Shown here: positions 6,854 to 60,250 of the stretch, one piece after another
Layout of the letters: the number at the start of each line of letters is the position of its first letter
Numbering within the stretch: the stretch's first letter is position 1
Assembly (NCBI RefSeq): GCF_009931435.1
Contig: NZ_CP043414.1
Origin: Escherichia coli
Lineage (GTDB): Bacteria > Pseudomonadota > Gammaproteobacteria > Enterobacterales > Enterobacteriaceae
Strand: one strand, 5' to 3'
DNA: 64,000 bases
Translations under genes and position numbers: made by a program
The notes under the pieces: model-generated
Seen by the model: the letters and a program-made list of their open reading frames with translations, nothing else
What the model was told of the DNA's origin: nothing
Database searches by the model: none

Positions 6854-8362
6854 TTACTGCTGCGGAATAGCGGGTACAGCCGGAACGTTTAATGCCGGCA
6901 TCGCAAACATGCCAACAAAATCTTCCAGTGGCATTTTCTGGCCGTTTAACGTGATCTGACCGTTAGCATATTGCAGGCTGGTGGTGATGGTATTGTCCTG
7001 CAAGGTGGTCAGACGGAACATCTGCCCCATTGCTGATGCACCTTCAACTTGCTGTTTCGCCAGTTTTTTCGCTTGATCTTCCTGATAACCTTCCAGCTTC
7101 GCTACCTGAGTCATCAACTCAGTTGCCATATCCACCGGAATGGTCAGTTTCGCATCCAGAGATTTAACCGAGCGGTCTACTTCCTGTGCCAGCGTTTGCG
7201 GCGCTTCTTTTGTCGTTGCCGGATCTTTCAGGAACAGCGACAGATTCAACGCACTTTCACCCTGACTGTTTTTCCAGCTTAACGGCGCGATAGTGATCAC
7301 CGGATCGCCTTTCAACATCAGCGGCAGGGCGCTAAAGAAGGCTTCCGTCACTTTCTCCTGATAAAGTTCGGGATTGTTGGCAATCTCTGGCTGTGCCAGA
7401 AGCGCCTGAGTTTGCGCGTTATATTGCTGACTAAACTGATGCCAGGCTTCGCCATCAATCTGGCCGACTTTTAAAGTCAGCTTGCCGCTGCCCAGATCCT
7501 GATTCTGTACCTTAAGGCTATTTAGCGAGTAATCCAGTTGGCTATTGATCGTTTTACCGTCATTGACCAGATCCGATTTACCGCTGATCTCCATGCCTTC
7601 CAGCAGTGCCAGTTCTTTGCCTTCCACTGAAATGGTCATTTTCTCCAGCGACAGTTTTTGGTTTCCTACGCGCTCACCAAAACTTGCCAGCGTGCTGGAA
7701 CCGTCGGTTTTCAGATTATTAAAGGTCAACTGCACTTTCTGGTTGTATTCGTTAACCGCGTCTATCCGACCACTTTGCGCCTCCCCTGAAAGGGAGATAG
7801 TTTTACCGTCTCTGTCAGCATTTAACTGGAACTCGCCGCCGCTAAAGGCGACTTTTTCATCCTTTTGCTCGTAATTCAGTGGCTTGAGCGAAATATCGGA
7901 ACTGGAATCACCGCTATAACCAATGCGGGAGTTAATCTCAAAAGGCGTTTCACCCTTTGCCATATCAAACAGTGGCTTGCTTACTTCGTTATTGACCAGC
8001 GTGGTTTGAATTGATGCCATAGACGGGATCAGGTTCAGTTTTTTAAGCTGGGCAAAGGGGAAGGGGCCATGATCAACTGATTCGTTGAAGATGACGCTCT
8101 GACCACTTTTAATCCACGGATTTTCTTTTCCGGCAACGGGTTTCACCAACAGCTGCAACTGGCTGCTGAATACGCCGCGATGATAGTTTTGATAACTTAC
8201 TTCCAGGTTGGATTCAGGAGCTGTCAGTTTGAGTTGCGCGTTCGCCTGCGCGACCATGTCTTCGAGATGGGTTTCTATCTTCTTGCCTGTATACCATGCG
8301 CCGCCTGTCCAGACTACGCCTAGCGCAACAATGACGCCTACCGCTACCAGCGATTTATTCAT
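6854..8362 (-). CDS. ydgA: DUF945 family periplasmic protein YdgA
   Basis: 502-aa ORF with N-terminal signal anchor; K-12 synteny. Confidence 0.85.
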   Translation of the reverse strand: MNKSLVAVGVIVALGVVWTGGAWYTGKKIETHLEDMVAQANAQLKLTAPESNLEVSYQNYHRGVFSSQLQLLVKPVAGKENPWIKSGQSVIFNESVDHGPFPFAQLKKLNLIPSMASIQTTLVNNEVSKPLFDMAKGETPFEINSRIGYSGDSSSDISLKPLNYEQKDEKVAFSGGEFQLNADRDGKTISLSGEAQSGRIDAVNEYNQKVQLTFNNLKTDGSSTLASFGERVGNQKLSLEKMTISVEGKELALLEGMEISGKSDLVNDGKTINSQLDYSLNSLKVQNQDLGSGKLTLKVGQIDGEAWHQFSQQYNAQTQALLAQPEIANNPELYQEKVTEAFFSALPLMLKGDPVITIAPLSWKNSQGESALNLSLFLKDPATTKEAPQTLAQEVDRSVKSLDAKLTIPVDMATELMTQVAKLEGYQEDQAKKLAKQQVEGASAMGQMFRLTTLQDNTITTSLQYANGQITLNGQKMPLEDFVGMFAMPALNVPAVPAIPQQ

Positions 8363-50255: not shown

Positions 50256-50311
50256 AAAGGGCGGCAGAGCAGTCACGGAGTAAAACTGATACCGCCAAAC
50301 GTCACCAGAAA
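50256..50311 (-). ncRNA. dicF: DicF small regulatory RNA
   Basis: Minus strand reads TTTCTGGTGACGTTTGGCGGTATCAGTTTTACTCCGTGACTGCTCTGCCGCCC plus T-run, matching DicF as recalled; about 170 nt upstream of dicB. Confidence 0.75.
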
Positions 50312-50652
50312 ATTGATAACAGAGGGCGTTGCAGCGGGGTTGTCACTTAAGCGTATGGTCAACCTGACAACCCGGTGTCCTCAACGGGGGAAGGAATAAC
50401 CCCGCCATACTTACCGCCGCGCCATTTCGCGGATTGCCACAACCGGAAGCGCACGGTCGACGAAAATTTAACGACAGGCTATCTATGAACCAGCTACCTC
50501 GCCGTGCGCTTTCGCGTTATGGTCTGACTTTTCAGGGAAATATCCTTTCAGTAAACTGTCAGTGCCGGATGCTCACCCGTGTCCGGCGCAAGCACTCCAC
50601 CTTACCCGTGGAGAACTCCTTAATTACCAACCTTAGCTTCGTTGGTTAGCTA

Positions 50653-52253: not shown

Positions 52254-52662
52254 ACACATCCGCATGGCGATGAATGCCTGGGCGCATCCGGACGGTGAAA
52301 AAGTTCCGGCAGCTGAAATAACCAGGGCTTATTTTGAACTGGGTATGACGTTCCCAGAACTGCATGACGACAGCCATCCGGAAGCCCTGGCTCGCAATAC
52401 CCAGAAAATTTTCCGCTGGGTAGAGAAAGACACCCCTGATGCAGTTGAAAAAATTCAGGCGTTGTTACCAGCGATCGAAAAGGCAATGCCACCTTTGCTG
52501 GTGGCCAGAATGCGCAGCCACAGTTCAGCTTATTTTCGGGAGCTGGTGGAGACGCGGGAGCGACTGGTGAGAGACGCTGATGATTTTGTCGCAGTGGCAA
52601 TCGCCGGTTTCAATCAGATGAACCGTGGTGGCCCGGCAGGAAATGCTGTGGCAGTGCATTGA
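52237..52662 (+). CDS. YdaT-like (CII-like) regulator
   Basis: 141-aa ORF starting MKIKHEHI as in Rac YdaT (recalled); 17-nt overlap with preceding gene. Confidence 0.55.
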   Translation: MKIKHEHIRMAMNAWAHPDGEKVPAAEITRAYFELGMTFPELHDDSHPEALARNTQKIFRWVEKDTPDAVEKIQALLPAIEKAMPPLLVARMRSHSSAYFRELVETRERLVRDADDFVAVAIAGFNQMNRGGPAGNAVAVH

Positions 52663-52733
52663 GTGATAATAGCCATATCGAATCGCTTCCGGCAACTCGT
52701 GAGTAAAAAGATTCGGTATCAGAAGAGGTGAGT

Positions 52734-53804
52734 ATGGCTAACGCCTGGCTCAGATTATGGCATGACATGCCAAATGACCCTAAGTGGCGAACAATTGCCA
52801 GGGTGTCAGGGCAGCCAATTGCAACAGTGATGGCAGTGTATATCCACCTCCTGGTGAGCGCGTCACGAAATGTCACGCGAGGTCACATTGATGTCACGAC
52901 AGAAGATTTGGCAAGTGCGCTCGACGTGACAGAAGAGGTAATTGATTCAATTTTGCAGACGATGCAGGGGCGGGTACTTGATGGTGATTTAATCACTGGA
53001 TGGGAAAAACGCCAGGTGCTTAAAGAGGACAACGGCAATATTTCGCAAACCGCAAAATCTCCTGCAGAGCGCAAGAGGGCGCAGCGAGAGAGGGAAAGAA
53101 AGCGGGAACAAAATGGCGATTGTCACGGCGCATCACGAAATGTCACGCACATGTCACGACGAGTCACGACAGATAAAGATACAGATAAAGATACAGATCA
53201 AGAAGATCAAAACACTATGGTCCATGGCGTAAAAAACGCTACGAACCAGGCAGGGGATGTTCAGACCGTCAATCCTGGTCAGCCAGCAGGCACGACACCG
53301 GAAGCCGATTCAGCGTATGCGCTGAAACCCGATTCGGGCGCTGTGCAGCAGGTGATGACCCAAAGGCCGGAACAATCACACCAACTGCAGCAGCCTGAAG
53401 CCGATTCCGCCATTCAGCGGGAAGCCGATCGGGTAGTCCCGGAAAACACCGGGCTGTCTGTGGGACGAGTGGATTATCCGGATGTGTTCGAACAGGTCTG
53501 GCGGGAGTACCCGTTGCGTGCCGGAGCAAACCCGAAGAAATCCGCTTTCAGTGCCTGGAAGGCCAGATTACGCGAGGGGGTGCCACCAGAGGCCATGCTG
53601 GATGGCGTGAGGCGTTACGCAAGATACTTGGCGGCTACCGGGAAAACGGGAACGGAATTTGTTCAGCGAGCGACGACGTTTTTTGGACCGGACCGGAATT
53701 TTGAGAACCCCTGGTTGCTCCCGGTAAGCGGCACGAACAACCAGCGTTGTGTGAATCATATTTCTGAACCGGATAACGAAATTCCGCCGGGCTTCAGGGG
53801 GTAA
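52734..53804 (+). CDS. replication-module protein (YdaU-like, putative initiator)
   Basis: ORF 52728..53804, ATG at 52734 after AGAGGTGAG; N-terminal WLRLWHDMPNDPKW; contains iteron clusters and an acidic DKDTDKDTD linker. Confidence 0.6.
   Translation: MANAWLRLWHDMPNDPKWRTIARVSGQPIATVMAVYIHLLVSASRNVTRGHIDVTTEDLASALDVTEEVIDSILQTMQGRVLDGDLITGWEKRQVLKEDNGNISQTAKSPAERKRAQRERERKREQNGDCHGASRNVTHMSRRVTTDKDTDKDTDQEDQNTMVHGVKNATNQAGDVQTVNPGQPAGTTPEADSAYALKPDSGAVQQVMTQRPEQSHQLQQPEADSAIQREADRVVPENTGLSVGRVDYPDVFEQVWREYPLRAGANPKKSAFSAWKARLREGVPPEAMLDGVRRYARYLAATGKTGTEFVQRATTFFGPDRNFENPWLLPVSGTNNQRCVNHISEPDNEIPPGFRG
52861..53169 (+). repeat. iteron-like repeats (putative prophage origin) inside the replication gene
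   Basis: GTCACG-type motifs at about 52862, 52872, 52882, 52893 (inverted at 52925) and 53122, 53132, 53142, 53153, 53163; TCACGAAATGTCACGC occurs twice. Confidence 0.55.
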
Positions 53805-54270: not shown

Positions 54271-54497
54271 ATTAAAGGGCATTAGTTCAGATATGCATTG
54301 ACATTTTCATGGCACAAGGTAGAGCTAGCGTGGTTGTTCGCTTTGTGCCAAGAGTGGTCATTGATAATATTTTGGTGGGTTACATCTGTCAATGTTTCAG
54401 GTGATATGATATACAAATAGCCAGACTTAGACTGGCATGCTGTTTATTTTTATATTATGGGTGTGCCACATGGATTTAAAACTTATTGAGATATGAC

Positions 54498-55523
54498 ATG
54501 GATACTTTTCATAATATTTTGCTTGAGCACATAGACAGCCTTTTAAAAGAGAGACTTGATTTATCTGGTGACGCTGATATCGAAAAAGAAATTAATAACC
54601 TAATTCCCAAAATAGTCATTGTCGTTAAAAAATCTCTTATTGGCTCGGCCAATGCAATGCTTAGAGAACATCGTTCTCTTTGTGATGAATTTGTTGAGAG
54701 AAATATTTCAAGATGGGCAGAGGCTTTTGATTTGCTCGAAACACTTATAGTGATATGCACGGAGTCCGGTGAAGAGTTCAATCGTTCTTATAGACCACAA
54801 GCTGCCTCTGAAGAGGATGTGGTTTTTGATTTAGTCGTTCGGCATCACGCAAGAGCTTGCCACATCGCCAACGAAATTTTGTGTCTCTTAAAGAATGGAT
54901 TTGCAGATGCTGCCCAAGCGAGATGGCGAGCACTTCATGAGGTAGCAGCCACAGCTATGTTTATAGCAAAGCATGGAAAAGAGTGTGCTGAGCGCTTTTA
55001 CTACCATGAAGTGGTTGATTCATATACTGGAATGTTGGAACACAAAAAGTACGAGCACCGGTTAGAAGCAAAAGGTCCAACTATTGAAGAAATAGCTGAG
55101 TGCAAAGTTCAATTTGATCTATTAATAAAAAAATACGGCAAAAAATATGCAGATAATTATGGGTGGGCATCTTATATTTTCCCTAACCATAATAAAGTGG
55201 GGTTTGGAGCTATTGAGAAAGATGTTCAGTTAGAACACATGCGCCCTTATTATAAGTGGGCGAGTCAGAATGTACACACCGGTTCCAAGGCAATGAGAAA
55301 TAGGCTTGGTCTCTGTGAAACTGGTGATGATATATTATTGGTCGGGCAAAGTGATTCAGGAATGGCTGATCCAGCCCATGCTACTGCTATTAGTTTGATG
55401 CAGATTACTGTGACACTTTTATTCTTAAAACCAACCATTGATCATGCCGTCATTTCAAAAATAATACAGGATTATTCTGATGAGATTGGAAATGTATTTC
55501 TTAAAATTGATAAGGGTAATTAA
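54498..55523 (+). CDS. orphan AT-rich hypothetical protein (341 aa from ATG; 345 aa from TTG at 54486), function unknown
   Basis: Uninterrupted 1-kb ORF; visibly AT-rich versus flanks (about 38-40% GC by eye); no TM segments, no P-loop; no recognised homologue. Confidence 0.7.
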   Translation: MDTFHNILLEHIDSLLKERLDLSGDADIEKEINNLIPKIVIVVKKSLIGSANAMLREHRSLCDEFVERNISRWAEAFDLLETLIVICTESGEEFNRSYRPQAASEEDVVFDLVVRHHARACHIANEILCLLKNGFADAAQARWRALHEVAATAMFIAKHGKECAERFYYHEVVDSYTGMLEHKKYEHRLEAKGPTIEEIAECKVQFDLLIKKYGKKYADNYGWASYIFPNHNKVGFGAIEKDVQLEHMRPYYKWASQNVHTGSKAMRNRLGLCETGDDILLVGQSDSGMADPAHATAISLMQITVTLLFLKPTIDHAVISKIIQDYSDEIGNVFLKIDKGN

Positions 55524-55905: not shown

Positions 55906-56109
55906 TTGGCCAGGTGACGGGAGTTAAGTAGAATGGCTGCGGGTGCTTGAGGCTATCTGTCTCAGGCATGAACACCAAAGGCAGATAGAGAAAAGCCCCA
56001 GTTAACATTACGCGTCCTGCAAGACGCTTAACATTAATCTGAGGCTCAATCTATGAACGGCAAATCTAGGTTAGCCTCTTACGTGCCGAAAGGCAAGGAG
56101 AAGCAGGCT
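55906..56109 (+). promoter_or_regulatory. hok promoter and 5' leader
   Basis: TTGGCC-17 bp-TAGAAT; leader GCGGGTGCTTGAGG (55939-55952) complementary to 3' CCTCAATGCACCCGC (56315-56329), consistent with hok fold-back pairing. Confidence 0.5.
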
Positions 56110-56265
56110 ATGAAGCAGCAAAAGGCGATGTTAATCGCCCTGATCGTCATCTGTTTAACCGTCATAGTGACGGCACTGGTAACGAGGAAAGACCTCTGCG
56201 AGGTACGAATCCGAACCGGCCAGACGGAGGTCGCTGTCTTCACAGTCTACGAACCTGAGGAGTAA
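56110..56265 (+). CDS. hokD: Hok/Gef-family type I toxin
   Basis: 51-aa MKQQKAMLIALIVICLTVIVTALVTRKDLCEVRIRTGQTEVAVFTVYEPEE, near-identical to K-12 HokD/RelF as recalled. Confidence 0.9.
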   Translation: MKQQKAMLIALIVICLTVIVTALVTRKDLCEVRIRTGQTEVAVFTVYEPEE

Positions 56266-59453: not shown

Positions 59454-59753
59454 AAAAATTCCTTAATACTGATAACTTGGCGCACTATACACACGTTCCT
59501 GAAGAAAGCTATAGTTTTTTGATGGGGTTGAAGATGGCTGGATGTCTAAAATAAACATTGCTTCATATGTTCAACTATGCGTTAATGATTGCGTCGGTTT
59601 GAAGAACAGACGATATACGAAGTAGTTTACTAAAGCAGTTCTCATTTCAGGTGTTATTCACTTATTCCTTCTTTGAGTCTCTCCAATTAAGTACGAAGTC
59701 GTTTCTGTTATGCAAACCATTTATGCCGAAAGGCTCAAGTTAAGGAATGTAGA

Positions 59754-59969
59754 ATGTCAAATAAAATGACTGGTTTAGTAAAATGGTTTAACGCTGATAA
59801 AGGTTTCGGCTTTATTTCTCCTGTTGATGGTAGTAAAGATGTGTTTGTGCATTTTTCTGCGATTCAGAATGATAATTATCGAACCTTATTTGAAGGTCAA
59901 AAGGTTACCTTCTCTATAGAGAGTGGTGCTAAAGGTCCTGCAGCAGCAAATGTCATCATTACTGATTAA
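59754..59969 (+). CDS. cspB: cold-shock protein CspB
   Basis: 71-aa ORF with RNP1-like KGFGFI motif; about 300-nt upstream leader typical of cold-shock genes. Confidence 0.9.
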
Positions 59970-60250
59970 AATTCATCGCTCGTCTGTATACGATAACGAA
60001 GAAGGCTGATGCCTGAGTAGAGATACGGACAGAGTAGTGAATATTGGATTTCTTTAATAAAAATTAAGGAGGTCCAATACATGAAACAATGGCCAGCATA
60101 TTTGGCAAAATCTTAATCAGGAAAAGTATGCTAACCATTGTGGTGAAGTGCAGGTTTGCTGCATGAATAGTTTTACAGCAGAAGCTAACTGCTGGCATGG
60201 CAAAACAAAGTGCGTAAGTGGATGACTCCCACAAAAAGCACCACAATCTC

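Follow-up and report, generated by a model that had tools for sequence, protein, structure and literature searches.

Repeat arrays inside a prophage initiator gene

This analysis concerns a replication gene of a lambdoid prophage in Escherichia coli (assembly GCF_009931435.1, contig NZ_CP043414.1), which carries two arrays of short GTCACG repeats and very probably harbors a replication origin within its own coding sequence. The window, i.e., the whole stretch of DNA that was analyzed, is 64 kb long, and all coordinates are positions in it. The arrays were established by direct reading of positions 52400-53700 together with a search for GTCACG. The gene starts with ATG at 52734, a start also chosen by the NCBI annotation pipeline (PGAP), which names the product phage replisome organizer protein. 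Its parts are the following.

52734-53804, + strand: initiator gene of the replisome-organizer type, 356 amino acids (aa); full-length match to phrog_3729 'replication initiation protein' (E 1e-255)

52734-53105, + strand: region encoding the N-terminal domain, a modeled winged helix, residues ~1-124; presumed iteron-binding domain

52862-52898, + strand: array 1, four direct units, with GTCACG at 52862, 52872 and 52893 and the variant GTCACA at 52882

52925-52930, - strand: inverted unit, CGTGAC as read on the + strand, 32 bp past the last direct unit of array 1

53122-53168, + strand: array 2, five direct units, with GTCACG at 53122, 53142, 53153 and 53163 and the variant ATCACG at 53132

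53169-53219, + strand: A-rich, easily melted tract, including the tandem ACAGATAAAGAT x2.9 (53169-53203) and GATC sites at 53196 and 53205

53220-53741, + strand: remainder of the linker and C-terminal domain; phrog_18526 and the C-terminal half of phrog_1701 'DnaD-like helicase loader'

53742-53801, + strand: C-terminal tail of 20 residues, QRCVNHISEPDNEIPPGFRG, which matches the tails of host DnaT and Rac YdaU

The direct units follow each other at 10, 10 and 11 bp in array 1 and at 10, 10, 11 and 10 bp in array 2, which lies in the linker after the winged-helix domain. Array 1 starts ~260 bp upstream of array 2 in the same gene, and the two arrays together contain nine direct GTCACG-type units, to which the inverted one is added. 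This layout agrees with the original prediction, made from the sequence of the window, of two clusters of four to five GTCACG-type motifs at 10-11 bp spacing and one inverted copy; reading and search showed in addition that one unit per array is a one-base variant, and they placed the inverted copy at 52925-52930. A 16-bp unit encoding SRNVT had also been proposed to occur in both clusters. It was found as the 16-nt sequence TCACGAAATGTCACGC at 52863 and 53133, where both copies encode SRNVT and the 21-mers that enclose them are 95% identical.

Phased repeats of this kind occur nowhere else in the window. The 64 kb contain 34 exact GTCACG matches, of which eight fall within the 310 bp that span both arrays, and only arrays 1 and 2 contain GTCAC sites that succeed each other at 10/11 or 20-22 bp. 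A second GTCACG cluster, which could be an analog of the oriR region of Bacillus phage SPP1, was sought across the 64 kb window and none was found. A loose trio of GTCACG sites at 50272-50342 was considered as such a cluster and rejected, as it is unphased and two of its three sites lie inside the DicF RNA gene.

Array 2 ends where the A-rich tract begins. The 12-bp tandem ACAGATAAAGAT, present in 2.9 copies, encodes the peptide DKDTDKDTD, and the GC content of positions 53180-53219 is 30%, the lowest in the gene. Within the gene, stability is lowest in the 40-mer that begins at 53173, with a dG of -43.4 vs a gene mean of -57.2 (standard deviation 3.7), i.e., 3.7 standard deviations from the mean, and ranks among the most unstable 0.9% of the window. 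These sequence properties make the tract at 53169-53219 a probable candidate for a DNA unwinding element, and array 2 is probably the core initiator-binding site that would accompany it. The 'acidic linker' DKDTDKDTD, which had been traced to a 12-bp tandem repeat from the outset, is the translation of the A-rich tract, with the tandem mapped at 53169-53203.

A promoter and terminator scan gave nothing above chance. One weak promoter-like site was seen on the - strand at 53146-53119, inside array 2 (GTGACA, 16 nucleotides, GACAAT; 9/12 matches). It arises because the reverse complement of the iteron, GTGACA, resembles the -35 hexamer TTGACA, and it may be due to chance.

The repeats are constrained as DNA

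The nine direct units use all three reading frames (2, 0, 1, 0 in array 1 and 1, 2, 0, 2, 0 in array 2). In a recoding simulation, residues 1-160 were kept and codons were redrawn from local usage in 20,000 trials. The recoded sequences contained a mean of 0.8 and a maximum of 5 forward GTCACG sites, and none of the 20,000 trials reached the 7 sites that are observed.

Conservation between genes points in the same direction. A codon alignment was made of 17 core-sharing genes from E. coli, Aeromonas and Pseudomonas phages and IMG/VR contigs, with ~60% nucleotide identity to the window gene. Third-codon conservation in this alignment was 0.976 inside the cores vs 0.615 outside (Mann-Whitney p = 1e-6), and the contrast was unchanged when the comparison was restricted to codons for residues that do not vary. 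Constraint on the repeats acts on the DNA, independently of the encoded protein. The SRNVT and DKDTDKDTD peptides are by-products of DNA elements that are located in tolerant parts of the protein, a variable loop and the linker.

Relatives keep the layout and change the core

Relatives were collected in two scans of IMG/VR. The first scan, made with a mixed alignment, gave only copies 99-100% identical to the window and was useful for polymorphism, not for divergence, while the second, with distant members, yielded a diverse set of 43 distinct genes. In 80 near-identical E. coli-type copies (loci L005-L084), whose N-terminal domains are 99-100% identical, the number of iterons does not vary and 79 copies have intact cores; the ATCACG unit of the window is a rare variant of GTCACG in this group. 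The length of the GATAAAGATACA (12/6-bp) tandem, by contrast with the fixed iteron number, ranges from ~1.5 to more than 5 units, and since this variation is in frame it alters only the length of the linker.

Aeromonas phage pAEv1818 and Pseudomonas phage phita81A have an N-terminal domain that is ~70% identical to that of the window protein, and in both phages the position of the two arrays and of the inverted copy is unchanged. The number of units in array 2 is five in the E. coli, three in the Aeromonas and four in the Pseudomonas phage genes, so that protein length changes there while the unit is kept. The protein sequence of the array 2 linker is otherwise unconserved among relatives. Whether repeat number varies in homologs had been put forward as a check on the original prediction, and it does: array 2 copy number ranges from 3 to 5 among the GTCACG-core relatives. 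The inverted copy is found at the same position in 17 of the 18 GTCACG-core relatives that bear array 1, and in the GCAACG and GTGACG clades core and inverted copy have changed together.

Across the 43 genes, seven core types occupy the same gene positions: GTCACG, GCAACG, GTGACG, GAAACG, GTAACG, CGAACGC and GGACAC, nearly all of which contain ACG. Ralstonia phage Firinga has GCAACG in both array positions, and a metagenomic phage has CGAACGC. Chains of at least three copies of one 5-mer at 10/11-bp steps were present in 38 of the 43 genes; the corresponding numbers for the controls were 1 of 42 upstream segments, 0 of 38 downstream segments and 0 of 43 shuffled sequences. The core is independent of the C-terminal part of the protein: GTCACG occurs with no fewer than five C-terminal parts that are unrelated to each other, and three cores are found within a single C-terminal cluster. 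In the sequences compared, the core goes with the N-terminal winged-helix domain and is not tied to the C-terminal part. Because array 1 lies in coding sequence, the residues that it encodes co-vary with the core.

Several members retain array 2 but not array 1, which makes array 2 the constant element. In nearly all relatives array 2 runs directly into AGATAAAGATA..., CAGATACAGATA... or AGAGAAGATAAGAG..., and a GATAAAGA-type or purine-rich run is found downstream of it, again in nearly all. Many relatives also have, downstream of the tract, a C-run motif like that of the Rac prophage gene ydaU. A homolog from a Microcystis phage (35% identity) contained no obvious repeats on reading its sequence.

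Domains of the initiator protein

To describe the N-terminal domain, residues 1-129 were modeled with AlphaFold2 from a 30-sequence alignment (mean predicted local distance difference test score 83). The model has helices at residues 29-45, 56-63 and 67-77 followed by a beta wing, i.e., a helix-turn-helix with a wing, and it structurally resembles CRP-type DNA-binding domains and the DnaD N-terminal domain. On the strength of this model, the N-terminal domain is assigned a winged-helix fold. The stretch encoded by array 1 runs from the end of helix 29-45 through the loop 46-55 to the first residue of helix 56-63, which precedes the recognition helix. Relatives without array 1 retain just AS-x4-RG in the loop, indicating that array 1 occupies positions at which the protein is tolerant.

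A PDB sequence search with the N-terminal domain profile returned no match, and the Pfam family Phage_rep_org_N (PF09681) stayed below threshold, with E 0.24 when the full protein was searched and 0.015 when only the domain was (model positions 1-119 of 121); E <= 0.001 with this family was reached by none of the 30 relatives. The repeats do lie in the open reading frame (ORF) at 52734-53804 that had been called YdaU-like, but that label was rejected for the DNA-binding domain. A Pfam search found no DUF1376, and BLASTP against K-12 YdaU matched only the tail (~19 residues) and low-complexity linker, so the N-terminal domain is unlike YdaU.

The C-terminal domain (53220-53741) is presumed to be the part that recruits the host replisome. 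Stx phage 75/02 shares only this part and the linker remainder of the initiator. In the tail, 14 of 20 residues (70%) are identical to the last 20 residues of E. coli K-12 DnaT (BLASTP E 4e-8) and 13 of 19 to Rac YdaU (BLASTP E 9e-6). An NCBIfam scan gave just the DnaT model, at positions 156-179 and below the cut-off. The similarity suggests that the DnaT-like tail may be a route from the initiator to host DnaB/DnaC or to the restart primosome. For DnaT itself, the hand-off to DnaB/DnaC has been described as unknown (PMC5778457).

A probable origin embedded in its initiator gene, and the alternatives

Four properties expected of an embedded origin are found together at this locus: phased direct repeats, adjacent meltable DNA, selection at the DNA level and a core that differs between relatives. 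We consider it very probable, from the sequence comparisons, that the two GTCACG arrays and the A-rich tract form an iteron-type (theta) origin embedded in the gene of its own initiator. The proposal that phased initiator-binding repeats constitute a prophage origin in the replication gene has passed every computational test applied. From these tests we infer that the initiator binds the units, that the tract unwinds, that the helicase is recruited and that replication initiates at this site.

Replication from such an origin would begin with prophage induction or infection, after which rightward early transcription would supply the 356-aa initiator. Its N-terminal winged-helix domain would bind the GTCACG units in array 2, and probably also those in array 1. 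With one unit per helical turn, the bound monomers would be aligned on one face of the DNA. The nucleoprotein complex, aided by negative supercoiling, would then melt the A-rich tract at 53169-53219, and the C-terminal domain with its DnaT-like tail would bring in host DnaB, presumably with DnaC.

A number of points weigh against this interpretation. The repeats are located inside the gene, which makes their linkage to it automatic, and co-variation of the core with the N-terminal domain is by itself no proof that this domain is the binder. Array 1, which is absent from several relatives, has a less certain role. Phased repeats are absent in five related genes with a different C-terminal part (IMG/VR loci L122, L123, L125, L126 and L127). 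The same N-terminal domain is joined there at ~residue 110 to …NYVYYVVDTERDVVKIGISRNPW… and there is no A-rich tract; the products of these genes may not be initiators. No DnaA boxes were detected in or beside the arrays, nor was there enrichment of them in the window, although such boxes are not required in this type of origin. Homology of the N-terminal domain to G38P, the initiator of SPP1, was undetected (hhalign with the 30-sequence profile, probability 0.2). Together with the sub-threshold match to Phage_rep_org_N, this means that the parallel with SPP1 is one of architecture. Experiments on binding, unwinding or initiation in this protein family were not found in the searchable literature.

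The alternative that survives best is that the arrays are binding sites, of the initiator or of another replication protein, for control, e.g., for autoregulation, for handcuffing or as a roadblock to transcription or forks like SPP1 oriR, with the true origin elsewhere. The presence of two separate arrays, of which array 1 is dispensable in some relatives, would fit such a function, as would their position in the path of rightward early transcription. Moreover, G38P of SPP1 has oriR as a further binding site, at which forks may stall (PMC3485210; PMC6316719). On the other hand, array 2 and the least stable DNA of the gene invariably come together, the layout is that of oriL, a proven initiating site, and not that of a bare set of binding sites, and no further phased GTCAC cluster exists in the 64 kb window. 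A purely regulatory role is unlikely.

A second alternative is that the linker DNA, i.e., the iterons with the GATAAAGATACAGATAAAGA tract, is mainly a shared recombination joint for the exchange of modules among phage replication genes. C-terminal parts are indeed swapped just downstream of the tract, the tandem length is polymorphic, and an almost identical tract, AATAAAGATACAGATAAAGATC, marks the domain junction of the unrelated Rac ydaU. A joint would leave unexplained the helical phasing, the clade-wise change of the core, array 1, the inverted copy and the synonymous constraint on the 6-bp cores. It can also be a side effect of an origin located at a domain boundary, as in lambdoid O genes. 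We regard recombination as the main role of this DNA as quite improbable.

Still less probable is that the repeats are sites for another DNA-binding protein, either a host factor or a neighboring phage regulator, e.g., the CII/YdaT-like protein. CII-like and Cro-like regulators are encoded just upstream, and given physical linkage a closely linked second gene would be compatible with the co-variation. However, GTCACG arrays persist in Aeromonas and Pseudomonas phages with different flanking genes, and a single host factor with shifting specificity is unlikely for hosts that range from Enterobacteria to Pseudomonas and Ralstonia.

The idea that the repeats merely follow from a repeated SRNVT peptide or from ordinary protein conservation, with no DNA function, has the double occurrence of SRNVT and the location of array 1 in a conserved domain in its favor, but it is hardly tenable in view of the three frames used, the recoding result (0.8 vs 7), the nearly invariant synonymous core positions, the variable copy number of array 2 in an otherwise unconserved linker and the retention of just AS-x4-RG in the loop of relatives without array 1. 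Protein conservation alone, with no periodicity in homologs, had been named at the start as what would speak against an origin; the frames, the recoding, the third positions and the phased homologs show a different picture. An origin embedded in the initiator gene is the interpretation that we adopt below.

Prophage setting

The initiator gene is widespread, being present at full length in 1646 of 5426 complete E. coli genomes (about 30%) as well as in hundreds of IMG/VR contigs. The annotated records that were examined show the coding sequence alone over this stretch, with no origin feature. Upstream of the initiator gene are a repressor gene, a Cro-like gene and a CII/YdaT-like gene, and the next genes downstream encode Ren-like/DUF977 and DUF5677 proteins. 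No helicase-loader gene, helicase gene or P-like gene follows the initiator gene in this prophage; some relatives do carry a helicase or loader gene next to it.

The prophage is Qin-like and adjoins rspAB in a closely matching genome, which also has dicB, ydfC and ydfU. Close to the initiator gene, the window further contains the DicF RNA (50259-50310, - strand), the sok antisense RNA of a hokD-type toxin locus (55941-56115, + strand) and a cspA-type 5' untranslated region (UTR) thermoregulator (59593-59985, + strand). DicF, sok, the cspA-type UTR and dicB/ydfC/ydfU mark a Qin-like lambdoid prophage in which the replication gene has been retained. Two genes past the initiator, in a low-GC stretch behind the replication module, a 345-aa ORF at 54486-55523 belongs to phrog_27456, a family of unknown function (DUF5677 according to PGAP), and may be an accessory (moron-like) gene.

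Implications

An origin inside an initiator gene is textbook knowledge. In the searchable literature, GTCACG iterons or an origin in this protein family are undescribed, and an earlier in-silico prediction may exist. Recognition of the origin would provide a concrete landmark for prophage annotation, and it would account for the odd peptides SRNVT and DKDTDKD in the initiator as translated DNA elements. The protein family also offers a clean example of overlapping protein and DNA constraints.

With at least six core sequences on one scaffold, the family could serve as material for work on the reading of 2-3 bases by a winged helix and for the construction of mutually orthogonal replicons. The DnaT-like tail suggests that a phage initiator could load host DnaB without a phage loader. 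In our judgment, bench work is warranted on the changing core, on the presence of an array in the sequence that encodes the winged helix and on the DnaT-like tail.

Comparison with known systems

In phage lambda and the Stx phages, gene O carries in its middle both iterons and an AT-rich region (PMC7466680, PMC6022878). The iterons of lambda are 19-bp imperfect inverted repeats, and iteron number varies among relatives, 4 vs 6 (PMC7466680). The window gene resembles these origins in having iterons and AT-rich DNA at the boundary between a DNA-binding N-terminal domain and a C-terminal recruitment domain, and like gene O it follows a cII-like gene in the early right operon. It differs in its 6-bp cores, which are all direct within the arrays and occur once per helical turn, in the presence of two arrays and in the lack of a P gene, and a Pfam search found no lambda O domain in the window protein. 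Of the suggestion that the locus mirrors the ori in lambda gene O, the location of iterons inside the initiator gene holds, but in view of the 19-bp inverted repeats of lambda the closest model is SPP1 oriL.

Iteron plasmids combine a winged-helix initiator (RepE of F, RepA of pPS10 and pSC101, Pi of R6K) with direct repeats, an AT-rich unwinding element and recognition that is specific for each relative. The same combination is found here, with a winged-helix initiator according to our model, direct repeats, an adjacent AT-rich element and specificity that appears to differ among relatives. Plasmid iterons are ~17-22 bp long, with a spacing of about two helical turns, and are found outside the rep gene. 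In contrast, the unit described here has a 6-bp core, recurs once per turn and lies within coding sequence. As for DnaD, which acts in initiation and restart in Firmicutes, its N-terminal domain shares 8% sequence identity with the modeled domain and CRP-type winged helices score slightly higher; we know of no role of DnaD as an iteron-specific binder.

The Rac prophage offers a parallel in the same host species. Rac YdaU has in common with the window protein a TNKDTDKD linker, encoded by AATAAAGATACAGATAAAGATC, and a C-terminal tail ending in IPPGFRG. In Rac ydaU (L131 2470-2660), ~11-bp phased GATGTTCAA-type repeats are followed by AATAAAGATACAGATAAAGATC and then by CCCCCCC-TAAAT-CCCCCCC-GGGGG. 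The N-terminal domains are unrelated, the repeat sequence differs, and Rac, unlike the window prophage, encodes the DnaC-like YdaV. Rac has been reported to contain an active origin, oriJ (PMC3945230). The repeats and tract of ydaU may be the sequence basis of oriJ.

The closest known system is oriL in gene 38 of SPP1, where direct repeats bound by G38P are combined with an AT-rich unwinding element, and where a G38P-bound HindIII-StyI fragment of 356 bp has been shown to be both required and sufficient for in-vitro replication (PMC5737612; PMC6316719). The StyI site at 7802 and the HindIII site at 8158 of the SPP1 sequence (L133) are exactly 356 bp apart. From nucleotide 360 of gene 38, this fragment contains GAAACGACA, GAAACGACA, GAAAAAGACA, GAAAAAGACA and GAAACGG at 11-bp steps, followed by GATAAACAACAATGATAACAATGAAAACAATGATAAC. 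In both systems the origin, a probable one in the window, lies inside the initiator gene, and the linker just behind the N-terminal domain holds about five short direct repeats spaced by 10-11 bp. The repeats lie at nucleotides 360-410 of gene 38 and 388-434 of the window gene, and in SPP1, as after array 2, they run directly into an A-rich tract that begins with GATAAA. Each system also has a second binding region (oriR in SPP1 and, putatively, array 1 here), which is 13 kb away in SPP1 and 260 bp away inside the same gene in the window.

The SPP1 core GAAACG is also the core of two relatives of the window gene, L098 and L124. Thus, SPP1 gene 38 (L133 7939-8045) and genes of the proteobacterial type share this hexamer without detectable protein similarity, which could reflect homology beyond detection or convergence. 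At the C-terminal side, G38P and the window protein both match the C-terminal half of phrog_1701. The Pfam family Phg_2220_C (PF09524) matches G38P with E 2e-20 and gives no match in the window protein, and pairwise BLASTP of the C-terminal parts aligned the right region without significance (E 0.19); the shared PHROG is the one link between these parts. The systems differ in that SPP1 encodes its own loader and helicase (G39P and G40P), neither of which the window prophage has, and in that the host of SPP1 is Bacillus, whereas we are dealing with a temperate lambdoid phage in a Gram-negative host. We file the element by analogy as one that would work like oriL/G38P, while membership in the G38P protein family is unproven.

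A more speculative step, which we put forward only tentatively and hold to be rather doubtful, is that a single origin design extends from Bacillus phage SPP1 to proteobacterial lambdoid prophages. The design would consist of G-N-N-A-C-G units, one per turn, in the initiator linker and a GATAAA-type tract, with the two to three variable bases before the invariant ACG (GTC/GCA/GTG/GAA/GTA-ACG) setting specificity. A second array would lie in the winged-helix coding sequence itself, and in this E. coli version a copy of the host DnaT tail at the end of the initiator would make a phage loader unnecessary. If this is true, a change of site within the winged-helix coding sequence would also alter the protein, and the family would provide a simple, switchable set of protein-DNA recognition pairs together with a new route for helicase recruitment.

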